From: Gemmatimonadota bacterium
Lineage (GTDB): Bacteria > 4572-55 > J002
Length of the DNA: 51,145 bases
Direction: 5' to 3'
Assembly (NCBI GenBank): GCA_003697105.1
Contig: RFFQ01000186.1
Span: forward strand, 1 to 51,145
The notes under the pieces were generated by a model. It was not told the DNA's origin. It saw only the letters and a list, made by a program, of their open reading frames with translations, and did no database searches. Every line of letters begins with the position of its first letter. Position 1 is the first letter of the stretch. Below are positions 7,756 to 40,619 of the stretch, piece after piece. The translations under genes and the position numbers were made by a program.

Positions 7756-8748
7756 ATGAATCGAACCACTGCGCAGCGTATTTTAGCTGAATTCAAACAG
7801 AAAAAGGTTATTGTCATCGGAGATGTGATGATCGATGAGTATATTTGGGGCGATGTTCACCGCATTTCGCCAGAAGCGCCCGTACCGGTGATCGAGATGC
7901 AAGGTACGACCGTACGGCTCGGCGGGGCGGCAAATGTTGCCCATAATATCGCGGCGTTGGGCGCCACGCCTATTTTGATCGGCATTATCGGTGATGATGA
8001 TGGTGCCCGCATGTTGATCGATTGTGTCACGGAAAATCAGATGAGTGCCGCTTATCTCATCTCGGATGCTTCCCGTCCCACGACCCGAAAAACCCGCGTG
8101 ATTGCCCACCAACAGCAAGTGGTACGCATCGACCGGGAAAGTACGAACCCTATTTCCGAAACAGTCCGGCAGGATGTTTTGGCACAATTTGAAGCACAAA
8201 TTCAAGATGCCGATGCCGTGTTGATTCAGGACTACAACAAAGGCTTACTCACCCCCGATTTGATCGCATCCATTATCCAGAAAGCACGGGACGCTGGGTG
8301 TTTTATCTCCGTTGACCCCAAATTTGAGAATTTTTTCGCTTATAAAGGGGTGAATCTTTTCAAACCGAATCTACGGGAAGCGGAAACCATGCTCGGTATG
8401 AAAATCCGTGAAAATCAGGATGTCAACCAGATGGGGCGGCGGTTGCTGGAGCAGTTGGAGTGCGATATGGTACTCTTAACTCAAGGTCCCAATGGAATGA
8501 CCCTTTTTGAGGGGGAAAATTTCATTACTTATATCCCCACTGTCGCGCGGGAAGTCTTTGATGTCTCTGGGGCGGGTGATACGGTCATTGCCACCACAAC
8601 GCTGGGGTTGACCACCCACGCTACCCCCGTGGAAGCGGCGGTTCTCGCCACCCATGCGGCAGGGATTGTCATTGGCAAAGTGGGTATTGCGCCGATCCAG
8701 TGGGAAGAGTTGCAACAAACCTTTAGCGAGGACGACAATGGTGATTGA
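7756..8748 (+). CDS. rfaE1: D-glycero-beta-D-manno-heptose-7-phosphate kinase (RfaE domain I)
   Basis: [34 protein letters not shown] PfkB motifs. Confidence 0.92.
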
Positions 8749-10741
8749 TTTGCCTGCACTGCTAAATATCCGGCAAGAACTCGCTACCGCCGGTAAAACG
8801 GTCGTGTTTACCAATGGATGTTTTGATATTTTGCACCGGGGGCATGTGGACTATTTACAAGCCGCTAAAGCCCTGGGTGATGTGCTAATCGTGGGCGTCA
8901 ACAGTGATGCCTCTGTCCGGCGTCTCAAAGGTGAATATCGTCCCATCGTCCCGCAAGCGGACCGGGCTTTCATTTTGGCGGCACTTAAACCGGTTGATTA
9001 CGTGATCCTTTTTGAGGAAGATACCCCAGCAGAGTTGATCCGGAATATCGTACCGGATGTTTTGGTCAAGGGTGGTGATTATCCCATTGATCAGATCGTT
9101 GGGCGAGAGATTGTTTGGCAACACGGTGGGGAAGTAAAAACAATCCCACTCACGGCGGGTCGTGCCACAACCAATATCATTGAAAAAATTCGCCATATCT
9201 ACCATTCAACAGAGGGAGGTCGCATGTCTTATTTCGCCACTATCGAGAGTCTCGTTAAACAGGGCACCATTGAATCCGTGCTAAAACGTGGCTCGACTAA
9301 CAAAGAGGCTATCAAAGCCTTGCAGCAACTGCTTTTCCAACTTGGGTTTGGAAATGAATTGAACTGGGATAAATATGGTGCTGATGGTGATTACGGTGGC
9401 AGTTCCACGGCGGCGGTCAAAGCGTTTGCCGCTAAAAATGGAATTTCTGCTTCTGGTGAAGTGGTAACCACCACCATTGGACAAAAACTTTTGGATCGAT
9501 ATGCCATTTTAGATGACCTGCGCCACCTGAAAAGTGCGATTGACAAAGGCAAAGTGGAAGCCTTTCTGTATCGCGGTTCACCCCACAAAGAGGCGGTCGT
9601 TGCGTTGCAGACGTTGCTGAATGAGTTGGGTTATGGTGAGGAACTTAACTGGGATAAATACGGTGCTGATGGCAGTTATGGTGGCAGTTCCACGGCGGCG
9701 GTCAAGGCGTTTGCCGCTAAAGAAGGTTTTAGCAGTGATGGTACGAAGGTCACGGCGGCAATGGCACAGCGTATTGTCGATAAGCTTAGCACCTATTATG
9801 GCGATGGTTGGGAGGGTAGTGAGGTGGCGGTTCGTAGCGGTTCCGGTGACCTGACCATCAAGGAATATACCCGGCGGGGTCGCCAGCGCGTCTGTATCTC
9901 TGATGGTTCGGTGGAAAAAGAGTTTGTTAAATTTAAAAAGGGTGTTTACACCTATGGTAATCAAAAGGCGATTGATGTGGTCAATGCCAATCGGTCGCAA
10001 TTGACCCAACTGGGGCTAACGGATTCTGCCCTCAATGTGATGGTGGCTGTTTCGGAAAATGAAGGTAATCTCGATGCAATTAACACTTGGGATAACTCGT
10101 TCATGACGTTTGGTATGTTTCAATGGACGGTTGGCGCCCGAAATGACCCGGGTGAGCTGCCGGCACTTGTCAAAAAGATAAAAGATAAAGATGCGGCAGT
10201 TTTTCAAACCTATTTTGGCCAACATGGCTTGGATGTCGTCAACACGGATGCCATTTCTGGCTATTTTACCTTGAACGGTCACAAAATTGGCTCCGCGAGT
10301 GAAAAAGAGCGTTTTCGCACCTATGAATGGGCGTTTTACTTTTGGAAGTCCGGGCAAGACCCGCTGGTGCAAATGATCGAAATTCAACATGCCATGTCCC
10401 GGATTGATACCTTTTACCGTGCCCCTGCTTATAAAGTAAAAGGGTATTTTATCGCCGATTTGGTCACCTCCGAATATGGTGTTGGGTTGCTTCTGGATAA
10501 TCACGTCAACCGTCCCGGCTATGTGAAAGGGTGTCTGGAAGAGGCTCTGAAGCAAACCGGTTTGAGTAATCCGGCGGGATGGGGTACTGCCGAAGAGCGG
10601 CAGTTGATTGAAGCCTATCTTAAGATTCGCGAAACCTACGGACGTTATCCCATGACGCACGCCAGTAAACGGGCGGCGGTTACGAAAAAATATCTGGATA
10701 ACGGCACGATTTCAGATGAACGACATTCCTTTCAGTGGTAA
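8738..10741 (+). CDS. rfaE2: RfaE2 heptose-1-phosphate adenylyltransferase fused in frame to two peptidoglycan-binding repeats and a lysozyme-like domain; internal RBS and ATG at 9224
   Basis: [30 protein letters not shown] in the first ~160 aa. No stop before GGAGGTCGC-ATG at 9224. Then two LQxLLxxLG...DGxYGxxSxAAVKAF repeats and an [13 protein letters not shown]...FGMFQWT domain. Confidence 0.8.
9362..9721 (+). repeat. Intragenic ~75-bp direct repeat encoding the duplicated PG-binding modules
   Basis: 9362-9436 vs 9647-9721, offset 285 bp (95 codons), encoding [25 protein letters not shown]. Confidence 0.85.
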
Positions 10742-35295: not shown

Positions 35296-36507
35296 TTAAG
35301 TGCAACGGGGCTTATTCCCCCGGCGATGGGGAGGATGAATATCGTATTTCCGGCGACTGACTACCAGCATACCATTGATCAGACGCTTTTTCCGGAAACC
35401 GAGCAAATGAAAAATTTGGATGGTGTACAGGCGAGCAATTCGGGTATTTACAATAAACGTATCGGATTGGTGCGGATGGCGGGTGACGCCCGGCAAAAGG
35501 TGTACCCACCGGCACGTCCGGAGCCGGCGCAAAAAGGATGAGACATACAACCAAAACGGCTGGATTCGTCGGGCTAGAAAGAAACCATCATCTCCCTGTC
35601 CTTGGTACAGCGGTAAAAATACGCGGCCGCTTTCTGGAGCGCGGATGTCTCCCTTACGGTCGGTTGCCAATAGTTGGTGCTTGTGGACGGGGGTCAAATT
35701 TTCAAAGCCGGGTTTCATGCGGAAGCGGTCTGCTGGCGTGATCCCATGACGGTAGCGGACTTCCAAAGTCCGGGGTAAGCCGCGGGTGGCGCGGGCAAGT
35801 TTGTGATGATACTGCCGGACTTCCGGAAAGTGCTTTGCCGAAAGGCAACCTGCCGAAACTAAGGATATCCAAATCGCCGCTTCCTGATAATCAATTGAAG
35901 AGGGGTCATCATGTTGACCGGCTTCAAATCCGTAGGAGACACAGCCCAAATCATTGACCCAACCCAACATCACGCCCTCAAGCGCTTCTTCAATGCCTAA
36001 AATCAAGGGGACGGGCAACCGGGACGCAAACCGCCGGTTCCGCAGGGTGTCTCCAAACAATACAAACGGGGCACTCCGGGCAGAAGAGGTGTGCAGGTCA
36101 ATAACGAAAAAATCCTCAAAAGGATGTTGCAGGGCATCATCCAAAACGGCGATTAATTCCTGTTGTTCTTGGTATTCAATCCCCGGTGGGAGATAAGGGC
36201 TTCTGGTACGGGCAATGATTTCATTGGTCCAGATACGGTTTAAATCTTTATCGACATAACGTTTTCCCAAGCGGAGCGCTGTTAAATTGCCGATCACCGC
36301 CATGAATTTGCCTCGAAAGGGCACTTTTTCATGTTCTAAACGTTGGAGCACTCGCCACAGGGCGATAACCCCGGAGCGCTCATTCCCGTGCATTGCTCCG
36401 ACACAAAAGACGATGGGTCCACCGTCAAACGTGCCGTATGTACCCAAAAGCCGGTTTTCAAAAGAGGTTTCGTGTAGTTCATCGTGCAGAATCAATGGTG
36501 CTGACAA
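35296..36507 (-). CDS. Succinylglutamate desuccinylase/aspartoacylase (AstE/AspA, M14-like) amidohydrolase; TTG start
   Basis: MHGNE, DLNRIW, IDLHTSS, FEAG Zn/catalytic motifs; GGAG RBS overlapping the end of the upstream gene. Confidence 0.88.
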   Translation of the reverse strand: MSAPLILHDELHETSFENRLLGTYGTFDGGPIVFCVGAMHGNERSGVIALWRVLQRLEHEKVPFRGKFMAVIGNLTALRLGKRYVDKDLNRIWTNEIIARTRSPYLPPGIEYQEQQELIAVLDDALQHPFEDFFVIDLHTSSARSAPFVLFGDTLRNRRFASRLPVPLILGIEEALEGVMLGWVNDLGCVSYGFEAGQHDDPSSIDYQEAAIWISLVSAGCLSAKHFPEVRQYHHKLARATRGLPRTLEVRYRHGITPADRFRMKPGFENLTPVHKHQLLATDRKGDIRAPESGRVFLPLYQGQGDDGFFLARRIQPFWLYVSSFLRRLRTCRWVHLLPGVTRHPHQSDTFIVNTRIARLYTIQIFHLLGFRKKRLINGMLVVSRRKYDIHPPHRRGNKPRCT

Positions 36508-36513
36508 TCTGAT

Positions 36514-38445
36514 TTACTCCTTTTTTAATTTTTCTTCGATTAAGTAGCCCGCGATTTTCATAAAGTCATGCTGGGTCACAATGCCCACCAGTCGCCCGTC
36601 GGAAACAACCGGTAGGCAGGAGACCCGTTCTTGTTTCATCAGGTCAATTGCATCTAAGGTGTGGGTTTCTGGGGAGACGGTGGGCATATCGCGCCGCATC
36701 ACTTCGCCCACCGTGACAGAAAGGAAATTCTCGCATTCAAAATCTCGTTGCAAAATATAGCGGATCAGTGTTCGGAACGAGATTAGCCCGACGAAATTGT
36801 GGTTATCATCTTCTACGGGGACATGCCGGATGTGATGCCACTTCATCAGGCTAATGACCATTTCGAGCAGGTCATCTTCATGCACGGTGAACAAATCCCG
36901 CGTCATATACTGTTCAACCTGAGCATAATGGTATTTCCAACTCTCATCTGAAGGTTCTAACTCTGCCAATTTCCACTCATGAACGGGTATTCCCTGTTTT
37001 TGGTATTTGATCATGGCTTGGGTCAGGGTTGCTAGACATTCTTCGGTAGTCCCTTCATCTTTCATTTGTCCGAACGAGTGAATTTGCCATTTGCAGCCGG
37101 TTTGAAAGGCATTAACGCGCTTTTCAATAACGCCCAAATAGCGATCAATATCCGCTTGATCAATCTCGGCACTTTCCAATCCCTTTTGCGCTAAGGGTAG
37201 GAGCTGGTTGATCAGCTCTTTTGCCGGTATAATCTTTTGGTCGAACCACACAAATTGCGAGTCCAACCCCCGCCGGGCGGCGGCGACAAAATTCCCTTTT
37301 ACATCATCAAAATCCATAAGGTCTTTTACCTTATCGCCGTATTTCCAGTCGATTCCGTTGATCAATCCAAACCAGAACGCGGCATTTGCGACTTCGTCCA
37401 GCACGGTGGGTCCGGCGGGCAACACGCGGTTTTCAATCCGCAGGTGGGCTTTACCATTGGTGATGCCGTAGCAGGGGCGGTTCCAGCGATAAACCGTGCC
37501 GTTATACAATGATAACGCTTTGAATTTGGGTAATTCTCCCCGCTTTAAAATATCAAACGGATTATCTTCCAGATCGCCATGTAAGATGGCGCGGCGGCGC
37601 GAAATATCCTCTTGGAAAATTTCCAATACCGATGTTTCCACCCAGCGGTCACCAAAATTAACCCGTGGATTTTGCTCCCGGAACGGCGTTTGAGGGAAGT
37701 TGCGTTTATCAACCGATTGTTGGAAGACGGCGATACGGGTTTCACACCACAACCGTTTACGGAACAAAAACGGGGAATTGGTGGCAACCGCCATCACCGG
37801 CGCCGTGACCAATTGGGTGATGTTGTACAACCGGGCAAATTTTGCCGGTGATACCTGAAAATGGACTTGAAAACTGGTATTGCAGGCTTCCAGCATCAGG
37901 GAATCATGACGGATGTGCAGTTCGTCAATCCCTTTTAAGAAGAACTCGAAGTCCGAGCCGCCACGCAAACGGTTTAGGGCGTTGTTGAGTTCAAAGTAGC
38001 GCGGATTATCGGTCATATTTTCAAGGGTTAAATCGGATTTACGCACCGTGGGTAGCGTGCCACTCAATACAATATCTGCTCCGAATTTTTGGGCGGCTTG
38101 CCGGGCGTTATCAATGTAGGTATTTAAGTTGGTTTCCAGTTGTCGCAAGCAGTCTCCCCCAAAGTCGATCGGGTCTAAGTTGAATTCAATATTGAACTTA
38201 CCGAGTTCGGTGGTAAAGTGGGGGTCACTTAATTCCGCGAGTACTTCCCGGTTAATCATGGCGGGGCGTGCCGCCTGATCGACTAAAAATAATTCTTGTT
38301 CGGCACCAATCCGGTGGACATCCGATTCAATCAGACCGGCGTTTAACATGTATTCAAATGCCCGAACATCCTCCAATAAGGCTCGGGTAAAATCGCGCAG
38401 ACCTTCTTGATTCTCAGAACTCGTCTTGATATTATGATCGCCCAT
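36514..38445 (-). CDS. Glutamate-cysteine ligase family (GCS2-like) carboxylate-amine ligase with C-terminal tandem CBS domains
   Basis: IGAEQELFLVD, TELGKFNIEFN, SFQVHFQV, YRWNRPCY, LRIENRVLPAGPT. CBS pair VEQYMTRD...IRHVPV...VGEVMRR...LPVV...LVGIVT. Confidence 0.88.
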   Translation of the reverse strand: MGDHNIKTSSENQEGLRDFTRALLEDVRAFEYMLNAGLIESDVHRIGAEQELFLVDQAARPAMINREVLAELSDPHFTTELGKFNIEFNLDPIDFGGDCLRQLETNLNTYIDNARQAAQKFGADIVLSGTLPTVRKSDLTLENMTDNPRYFELNNALNRLRGGSDFEFFLKGIDELHIRHDSLMLEACNTSFQVHFQVSPAKFARLYNITQLVTAPVMAVATNSPFLFRKRLWCETRIAVFQQSVDKRNFPQTPFREQNPRVNFGDRWVETSVLEIFQEDISRRRAILHGDLEDNPFDILKRGELPKFKALSLYNGTVYRWNRPCYGITNGKAHLRIENRVLPAGPTVLDEVANAAFWFGLINGIDWKYGDKVKDLMDFDDVKGNFVAAARRGLDSQFVWFDQKIIPAKELINQLLPLAQKGLESAEIDQADIDRYLGVIEKRVNAFQTGCKWQIHSFGQMKDEGTTEECLATLTQAMIKYQKQGIPVHEWKLAELEPSDESWKYHYAQVEQYMTRDLFTVHEDDLLEMVISLMKWHHIRHVPVEDDNHNFVGLISFRTLIRYILQRDFECENFLSVTVGEVMRRDMPTVSPETHTLDAIDLMKQERVSCLPVVSDGRLVGIVTQHDFMKIAGYLIEEKLKKE

Positions 38446-38657: not shown

Positions 38658-38686
38658 TTGACAGCCAATCCAGAGGGGGATATATT
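38658..38686 (+). promoter_or_regulatory. Putative sigma70 promoter for the USP gene
   Basis: TTGACA-17 bp-TATATT. Confidence 0.65.
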
Positions 38687-39715: not shown

Positions 39716-39744
39716 TTGACACTGGCAAGTGCCTTTCATATAAT
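39716..39744 (+). promoter_or_regulatory. Perfect-consensus sigma70 promoter
   Basis: TTGACA-17 bp-TATAAT, with a GGCA-AG-TGCC dyad in the spacer. Confidence 0.85.
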
Positions 39745-39761
39745 CCCCCCACGGAGTACTC

Positions 39762-40619
39762 ATGAAAACCGAAGTGGCGTATTTCAACAGCCGTGAAGCC
39801 GCTCAAATTTTAGGCGTTAATGTTTCATCCGTAAAGCGTTGGACGGATGAAGGTAAACTGGAATGTATCCGCACTCTAGGCGGCCACCGCAAATTTATGG
39901 TGCGGCATCTATTAGACTTTTTGAAAAAGCACCGCCGCAAAACCTCCCAAGTTAATCTAACACCTATTGAGAGTGAAGCCGATCTGGAACTCCGGTACCA
40001 TATGTTTCGCCGGAATTATGAAGCCCTGATTCCACCTATTTATGAGCACGCATTTGAATGTCATCGGGATCAGCTTCAGCAAATATTGAATGAGCTTTAC
40101 CTGAGCCAATGTCCCTTGGCGGAAATTTACGGGGATATTCTAACGCCAGTATTGCACAAAATCGGTCATGAATGGGAGCAGGGGCGGATTTCGATCACGG
40201 AAGAACACATTGCCACCCAGACCATTCGGGATAGTATTATTCGGTTGCGGGGAATTATTCAGATACCCACTGCGAAAATTGGTAAAGTCCTCTCCCTCAA
40301 TTTATCCCATGAATTGCATGATATTGCCCTAAAGATGACCGAACATCTTTTGGAAACCAAAGGATTTGAGGTCTTTTACTCCGGTCAAATAACACCAACG
40401 ATCCACCTAGCACACGTTTTTGAGCGATACCAACCGGATCGATTGTATATTTCAAGTACGGTGGCGAAGGCAGATACGACCCAACAAGAACTAGACCGTC
40501 TATTTGCGTTATGTGAGGCGCACCATTGTGAAGTTTATGTCGGGGGGACCGGCTTTGACGCCCTTCAATACGATCATCCGGCAGTGATCCGACGAATTTA
40601 TCGCTTTCAGGATATTTAA
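39762..40619 (+). CDS. MerR/excisionase-type HTH plus cobalamin-binding regulator (CarH/LitR-like)
   Basis: EAAQILGVNVSSVKRW...RTLGGHRKF HTH; W-x9-EH (WEQGRISITEEH); E-x-H (ELH). Confidence 0.85.
   Translation: MKTEVAYFNSREAAQILGVNVSSVKRWTDEGKLECIRTLGGHRKFMVRHLLDFLKKHRRKTSQVNLTPIESEADLELRYHMFRRNYEALIPPIYEHAFECHRDQLQQILNELYLSQCPLAEIYGDILTPVLHKIGHEWEQGRISITEEHIATQTIRDSIIRLRGIIQIPTAKIGKVLSLNLSHELHDIALKMTEHLLETKGFEVFYSGQITPTIHLAHVFERYQPDRLYISSTVAKADTTQQELDRLFALCEAHHCEVYVGGTGFDALQYDHPAVIRRIYRFQDI

Follow-up and report, generated by a model that had tools for sequence, protein, structure and literature searches.

Ligase and hydrolase genes of the locus

The window analysed here, the whole stretch of 51,145 nucleotides of contig RFFQ01000186.1 from a Gemmatimonadota bacterium (assembly GCA_003697105.1), carries two adjacent minus-strand genes, one for a carboxylate-amine ligase with the glutamate-cysteine ligase (GCL) fold and a C-terminal pair of CBS domains, and the other for an M14-type zinc amidohydrolase of the AstE/AspA family (Table 1). 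The 643-residue ligase ends 6 bp before the start of the hydrolase, AAGGAG (36522-36517) stands immediately 5' of the ligase TAA, and GGAG lies 9 nt ahead of the TTG of the hydrolase. This arrangement, in which the last ligase codons contain the ribosome-binding site of the hydrolase, was described in an earlier note made from the sequence alone, and open reading frames (ORFs), Pfam matches and AlphaFold2 folds agree with it. The same note proposed that the two genes form a dedicated, energy-gated module that makes and breaks an amide bond.

In Pfam, the ligase scores 28.7 bits for GCS2, above the cut-off of 21, and 104.8 bits for a pair of CBS repeats, and stays below the cut-off of PF03074 (14 vs 25). 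Its AlphaFold2 model (pLDDT 91.5) matches GCL and YbdK folds together with a CBS pair. The best matches are the YbdK-like 1tt4 (Z 36.2, root-mean-square deviation 2.4, 345 aligned residues), the plant GCL 2gwc (Z 31.0, 379 aligned over residues 25-482) and the yeast GCL 3ig5 (Z 27.9, 469 aligned over residues 1-490, deviation 2.9), followed by GshF, GshA, Dop and PafA, the last two with Z 18-20. The GhExE motif of carboxylate-amine ligases (PMC2588565) reads G47-A-E49-Q-E51, and fold, motif and invariant residues place the protein in the glutamine synthetase (GS)/GCL-fold superfamily. Among 125 diverse sequences, counted where the residue is present, E49, E51, E80 and E87 are kept in 116/116, R149 in 120/120, R237 in 121/121, the set W321, R323, R336, E338 and R340 in 125/125, and Q193 and H195 in 120/122. 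In yeast GCL, E50/E52, E96/E103 and E470/R472 serve Mg, ATP and glutamate, and W445 serves the acceptor carboxyl, as described in the accessible text of PMC5613772; by motif order and spacing these residues correspond to E49/E51, E80/E87, E338/R340 and W321 of the ligase. In a weak profile alignment (E 1.5), yeast R196, Q268 and R313 stand opposite R149, Q193 and R237, while the positions of yeast G261 and M262 are taken by E186 (conserved in 108/122) and A187.

The hydrolase matches AstE_AspA_cat (PF24827) with 60 bits against a cut-off of 25, and its model (pLDDT 93.0) resembles AstE, EutE/DoeB, aspartoacylase and CphZ as well as the M14 enzyme CCP5. Residues H40, E43, H139, R83, N90, R91 and E195 show no variation among 120 close homologues, nor among 29 sequences spanning both of the hydrolase subfamilies discussed below. 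The HxxE...H zinc ligands, the R...NR carboxylate site, the catalytic Glu and the fold identify the protein as a member of the AstE/AspA (M14-type) family. A C-terminal extension is well folded in the model; of the 91 hydrolase ORFs taken from the loci, some of them truncated, 38 contain its motif. Judged from conserved residues, both catalytic sites look intact, and the ligase very probably performs gamma-glutamyl chemistry. No NCBIfam family of defined function is reached by either protein: the ligase falls short of the GCL cut-offs (NF010043, 33.9 vs 409; NF010041, 33.5 vs 332) and of those for YbdK (TIGR02050 and NF010039, 23.5 vs 176.4 and 24.9 vs 371), and the hydrolase of those for AstE and aspartoacylase (TIGR03242, 41.7 vs 305.65; NF002601, 53.3 vs 180).

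The motif G-h-h-T/S-x-x-D binds the ribose phosphate in adenyl-nucleotide-binding CBS domains. It is present in the second CBS repeat, with D627 in 69/87 and T/S624 in 71/88 diverse sequences, and mostly absent from the first, where the matching Asp occurs in only 24/88; one nucleotide site is therefore likely. The pair probably binds an adenyl nucleotide, to judge from these residues, and control of the ligase by energy charge is a more doubtful proposition.

Table 1. Positions of the ligase-hydrolase features in the window and of two related loci in other genomes
Feature	Position	Strand	Residues or basis
Ligase gene, 643 aa, ATG start	36514..38445	-	GCL-fold (carboxylate-amine ligase) with C-terminal CBS pair; Pfam, model, fold match
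Ligase catalytic domain, residues 1-490	36976..38445	-	E49, E51, E80, E87, R149, Q193, H195, R237, W321, R323, R336, E338, R340
CBS pair, about residues 508-636	36538..36924	-	Second repeat with G621-x-x-T624-x-x-D627
AAGGAG ribosome-binding site of the hydrolase, within the last ligase codons	36517..36522	-	Sequence
AstE/AspA-family (M14-type) zinc amidohydrolase, 403 aa, TTG start	35296..36507	-	H40, E43, H139 (Zn), R83, N90, R91, E195
Optional extension at the hydrolase C-terminus (about residues 317-390)	35338..35559	-	No Pfam match; many homologues lack it
Hydrolase with GshB-like ATP-grasp and MATCAP genes	L202:6017-10175 (G097)		Genome without GCL-fold ligase
Hydrolase with GshB-like ATP-grasp and MATCAP genes	L203:2879-6786 (G121)		Genome without GCL-fold ligase

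Pairing, fusion and possible exchange of partners

Co-occurrence was tallied in 440 genomes, even samples of Bacteroidota, Acidobacteriota and Planctomycetota with the three seed genomes removed and 20 CBS-less Bacteroidota genomes kept apart; many of the genomes are fragmented, the Acidobacteriota profile searches scored part of the candidates only, and the genomes are kin, so the counts are no statistical test. The CBS-type ligase is widespread, being found in 109 of these genomes, and has CBS-less relatives in actinobacteria and haloarchaea. The hydrolase occurs in 91 genomes, both genes in 82, and both within 3 kb of each other in 62. The ligase is thus present in 82/91 genomes with the hydrolase and in 27/349 without it, far above chance, and this common co-occurrence is in line with the earlier proposal. 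Co-occurring pairs are adjacent in 34/37 cases in Bacteroidota, 4/15 in Acidobacteriota and 24/30 in Planctomycetota. Among GTDB loci the hydrolase is adjacent in 16/18, the two misses lying near contig ends, and the gene order flips, with the hydrolase upstream in Acidobacteriota and downstream elsewhere. An adjacent AstE/AspA gene was found in 27 of 80 metagenome loci. In 13 ligase regions from Bacteroidota genomes without a hydrolase match, none was seen nearby either.

The two proteins are also fused. Six full ligase-hydrolase fusions and one partial one were seen among the top 150 cluster representatives out of 1647 clusters (E up to 1e-30, with a profile that includes the CBS domains); the six comprise three with each of two hydrolase subfamilies, and the fusion proteins hold no domains beyond ligase, CBS and hydrolase. 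A search for longer forms of the hydrolase returned no ligase fusion and only two other long proteins. The second AstE/AspA subfamily, about 18% identical to the window hydrolase, is the partner of the CBS-less Bacteroidota ligases (about 477 aa) and stands directly downstream of them in 18/20 cases; the carriers are probably green sulfur bacteria. It follows that the pair does not need the sensor. A FastTree phylogeny was built from 224 catalytic domains, left of 308 after removal of near-duplicates, with a single haloarchaeal sequence as root and CBS state assigned by tail length; in it, with no topology test run, the CBS-fused ligases form one clade (support 0.978) apart from the CBS-less groups. 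Read with the haloarchaeal root, the tree suggests that pairing predates the sensor.

A dedicated ligase-hydrolase module is well supported, since the genes are adjacent in three phyla, occur in flipped order, are fused, and have a counterpart in which a second hydrolase subfamily accompanies the CBS-less clade. To this extent the earlier proposal stands, with the qualification that the pair is not obligatory, 27 of the 109 ligase carriers having no hydrolase. Energy gating, which the earlier note ascribed to the module, is no defining trait of it, because CBS-less ligases also pair and fuse with an AstE/AspA enzyme.

Exchange of the ligase is possible as well. Only two Bacteroidota genomes have the window-type hydrolase and no such ligase (Table 1), and in both the hydrolase stands behind genes for a GshB-like ATP-grasp protein and a MATCAP carboxypeptidase. 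The GshB-like gene, unrelated to the GCL-fold ligase, occurs in 6/201 genomes and in 0/71 Bacteroidota genomes with the ligase. These loci may represent a swapped ligase partner, and the two cases may be a single event.

Several variants of the locus were recorded. A CBS-fused ligase with the hydrolase subfamily of the CBS-less clade directly upstream (L148:3-2871) represents an intermediate state. Two divergent CBS-ligase genes stand in tandem ahead of one hydrolase in four loci (G178:C2:174871-179873, G206:C78:9577-14546, L118 and L142). Single ligase fusions contain a HIT domain (P0246), a pyridoxamine-oxidase-like domain (P0363) or four CBS repeats (P0244). The only viral match is a partial ligase ORF of 274 aa at the end of a viral contig (L184:5130-5954), which is probably host sequence from the edge of a prophage. 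In GC-rich Planctomycetota, long open frames that cover the hydrolase were considered as fusions and set aside, since where checked they lie in a different frame from the ligase.

Neighbouring genes and thiol context

The source genome, 96.85% complete, has one copy of the ligase and, elsewhere, a separate YbdK-type gene. No GshB was found in it above cut-off (best TIGR01380 score 33.4 bits vs 299), and GshB above cut-off was likewise found in 0/121 Planctomycetota. BshC, of bacillithiol synthesis, is above cut-off in the source genome and in two of four other ligase genomes. PMC6282198 reports the use of N-methyl-bacillithiol in Chlorobiaceae and Polaribacter, taxa whose strains may or may not carry the ligase. 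Given the lack of GshB over cut-off in the source genome and in the Planctomycetota, together with this bacillithiol context, a role of the ligase in glutathione synthesis is unlikely. No ergothioneine genes were seen in the ORF lists of window positions 1-48000, for which no family search was made. The source phylum was represented by three genomes, and the other two gave no match.

The clustered loci share no third gene across phyla, and the 133-aa ORF 3' of the hydrolase has no relative across 18 loci. A general low-oxygen or stress gene set around the pair was ruled out, Usp genes occurring in only 22/212 loci, mainly of Acidobacteriota; the divergent two-domain Usp gene near the window pair is regarded as a mere neighbour. 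In seven metagenome loci (L155, L161, L166, L170, L176, L177 and L180), esterase and/or ATP-grasp-like genes lie upstream of the CBS-ligase, and in L155 the hydrolase follows the ligase. Operons of this esterase/ATP-grasp type usually carry YbdK.

Promoter and terminator scans of the window gave matches at chance level only. Individual sites include a near-perfect promoter match at 38658-38686 preceding the Usp gene and, within 39716-40619 on the plus strand, a perfect TTGACA-17-TATAAT match ahead of a MerR/B12-binding CarH-like regulator. Elsewhere on the plus strand, a single 695-aa ORF (8654-10741), possibly two genes in one frame, is presumably, from inspection by eye, an RfaE-like nucleotidyltransferase part joined to repeated peptidoglycan-binding-like segments, and a 508-aa ORF (996-2522) looks transposase-like by eye.

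Proposed function and relation to known systems

The reading put forward here, held tentatively and at close to even confidence, is that the ligase joins glutamate to an amino acid, that the hydrolase cleaves the bond again, and that ligase activity is tuned through adenyl nucleotide binding by the CBS pair. In such a cycle the ligase would phosphorylate the gamma-carboxyl of glutamate and then join the glutamate to the amino acid, which is established GCL chemistry, and the hydrolase would cleave the gamma-glutamyl bond of the product. In the clade of the window gene, the added CBS pair with its one conserved nucleotide site would probably tune the ligase, this being the weakest step. The gamma-glutamyl compound could serve as a reversible store or as a stress solute.

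That the hydrolase acts on the product of the ligase is fairly likely, and the hydrolase itself hints at the nature of the acceptor. In CphZ, R102, N112 and R113 form the binding site for the C-terminal carboxyl of beta-Asp-Arg, an isopeptide, and the catalytic residue is E251 (PMC9974463); by motif, R83, N90, R91 and E195 of the hydrolase correspond to these residues. Because this carboxylate-binding Arg/Asn/Arg set is kept, the acceptor should have a free carboxyl if the hydrolase acts on the ligase product. The site thus points to a gamma-glutamyl-amino-acid (or peptide) product rather than to a plain amine or a protein tag.

A number of observations weigh against the proposed cycle. A plain reverse reaction wastes ATP unless it is regulated, yet CBS-less pairs exist. 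Besides the ligase carriers without a hydrolase, 9 of the 91 hydrolase genomes have no ligase, five of them Acidobacteriota that were still negative with a second query, and adjacency is infrequent in the Acidobacteriota and also in metagenome loci with enough flank on both sides (21/50). No M14 gene is annotated within 6 kb of three CBS-less homologues from actinobacteria and haloarchaea. Among solved enzymes, the hydrolase is closest in sequence to the deacylases AstE (E 4e-21) and aspartoacylase (E 5e-12) and not to CphZ (E 0.009), which itself shows hardly any cleavage of gamma-Glu-Arg (PMC9974463). The correspondence with yeast GCL residues is our own motif mapping and involves no residue-level superposition. 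Complex prediction for the ligase (1-600) and the hydrolase (12-392) scored 0.00, which counts neither for nor against the cycle.

Two other explanations are unlikely to a similar degree. In the first, the ligase is a true glutamate-cysteine ligase whose gamma-Glu-Cys serves to store cysteine or acts as a minor thiol, with the hydrolase freeing the cysteine. The nearest characterised folds are indeed all GCLs or YbdK, 469 residues of the catalytic domain align with yeast GCL, a chordate GCL cluster ranks 28 of the 30 nearest Atlas matches (0.92), and R149 and W321, invariant, map by motif near the acceptor site. The protein nevertheless scores far below the NCBIfam cut-offs for GCL and YbdK, GshB above cut-off is lacking in the source genome and the 121 Planctomycetota, the GshB-like gene is missing from all 71 Bacteroidota ligase genomes, BshC and N-methyl-bacillithiol occur as described above, and E186 and A187 take the place of yeast G261 and M262 in the weak alignment.

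In the second explanation, the enzymes catalyse steps of one pathway that are not opposite: a compound is protected or activated through glutamylation by the ligase and is worked on by unlinked enzymes, while the hydrolase takes the glutamyl group off or breaks a different N-acyl bond, with net synthesis or breakdown as the result. Such protect-and-release logic is known for PuuA/PuuD and EgtA/EgtC. The affinity of the hydrolase to deacylases, the esterase/ATP-grasp-like loci, one with the hydrolase behind, and the presence of each gene alone in some genomes are consistent with it; the lack of a third gene recurrent across phyla and the restriction of the fusions to ligase, CBS and hydrolase domains argue against it. 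Much less probable still is a writer and eraser of a glutamyl tag on protein, in the manner of PafA or of tubulin glutamylases and M14 deglutamylases, since the shared fold of PafA and Dop, the M14 nature of CCP5 and the two loci with GshB-like and MATCAP genes are outweighed by GCL and YbdK fold scores well above that of PafA, by the lack of a recurrent small partner ORF (ORFs under 80-100 aa being left out of the clustering) and by a C-terminal Glu, tried as a carrier motif and rejected as a clade-specific tail, that occurs in 52/120 close ligases but only 10/66 diverse representatives. For the peptide tag that the earlier note had offered as one form of the product, the clustered ORFs and the ligase C-termini gave no support.

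Beyond the proposed cycle, the ligase core may be a bacterial relative of animal and fungal GCL, a group in which the available part of PMC5613772 places the yeast, human and trypanosome enzymes as those of non-plant eukaryotes. The longest structural overlap is with yeast GCL, which aligns end to end and also gives the highest query template-modelling score (0.54); PF03074 matched only a ligase of the window family (E 0.005) in five genomes, their YbdK-type genes included; the chordate GCL cluster is among the Atlas matches; and the yeast enzyme was the only GCL seen, weakly, by the ligase profile. Against this kinship, YbdK and plant GCL are the better matches by Z and Foldseek E, and PF04107 is matched by 42/48 family members and PF03074 by 11/48. 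A 21-row profile of the catalytic domain found no GCL in the PDB, and an Atlas search without PF04107 clusters gave only matches under 0.9. The fuller proposal, a prokaryotic sister of animal and fungal GCL that, together with a zinc isopeptidase of its own, drives a nucleotide-gated cycle of a new gamma-glutamyl-amino-acid metabolite in glutathione-free bacteria, is rather improbable. If true, it would supply both an origin for the eukaryotic group-2 GCL and a new metabolite. The kinship with yeast and animal GCL, if it holds, would bear on the origin of the eukaryotic glutathione enzyme.

The pairing of a ligase with a hydrolase is, as such, already known. In the accessible text of PMC2588565, a peptidase is named as the partner of two other ligase families and neither CBS nor AstE is mentioned, and FluG is a gamma-glutamyl ligase fused to an amidohydrolase, its product given as unknown in the part available (PMC6478659). 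No publication on a CBS-ligase and AstE/AspA pair was found in a search of mostly open literature, which did not extend to the 2009 amidoligase survey that may list it. Database labels for the ligase read only 'CBS domain-containing protein' or 'glutamate-cysteine ligase family protein', and no member of the family appears to have been characterised. Naming the product of the pair could reveal a common new metabolite and set right an annotation as glutathione synthesis that is likely to be wrong.

Compared with known systems, the ligase has the fold and the metal, ATP and glutamate residues in common with yeast and animal GCL (PF03074; 3ig5) and plant GCL (2gwc), but differs in its CBS pair, in altered residues around 186-191 and in an identity of only 14-18%; its partner is a zinc hydrolase, where GCL has glutathione synthetase, and most of its carriers lack GshB. 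YbdK and other GCS2 ligases (PF04107; 1r8g, 1tt4) give the best Z, and the weak above-cut-off GCS2 match falls in the N-terminal strands of the ligase, whose catalytic domain is some 130 residues longer than the YbdK family (about 370 aa). The hydrolase has the fold, zinc ligands, carboxylate-binding Arg/Asn/Arg and catalytic Glu of AstE, aspartoacylase, EutE/DoeB and CphZ (PF24827), at a structural identity of 11-20% and with its optional extension; unlike the settings of AstE, EutE and CphZ, the loci of the pair have no ast, ectoine or cyanophycin genes noted. Within this family, CphZ, as far as its available description goes, is the precedent for cleavage of an isopeptide dipeptide. FluG, PuuA/PuuD and EgtA/EgtC combine a gamma-glutamyl ligase with a hydrolase, as the window pair does; FluG joins a glutamine-synthetase-type ligase to another type of amidohydrolase, whereas the window pair consists of a GCL-type ligase with a CBS pair and an M14-type hydrolase.

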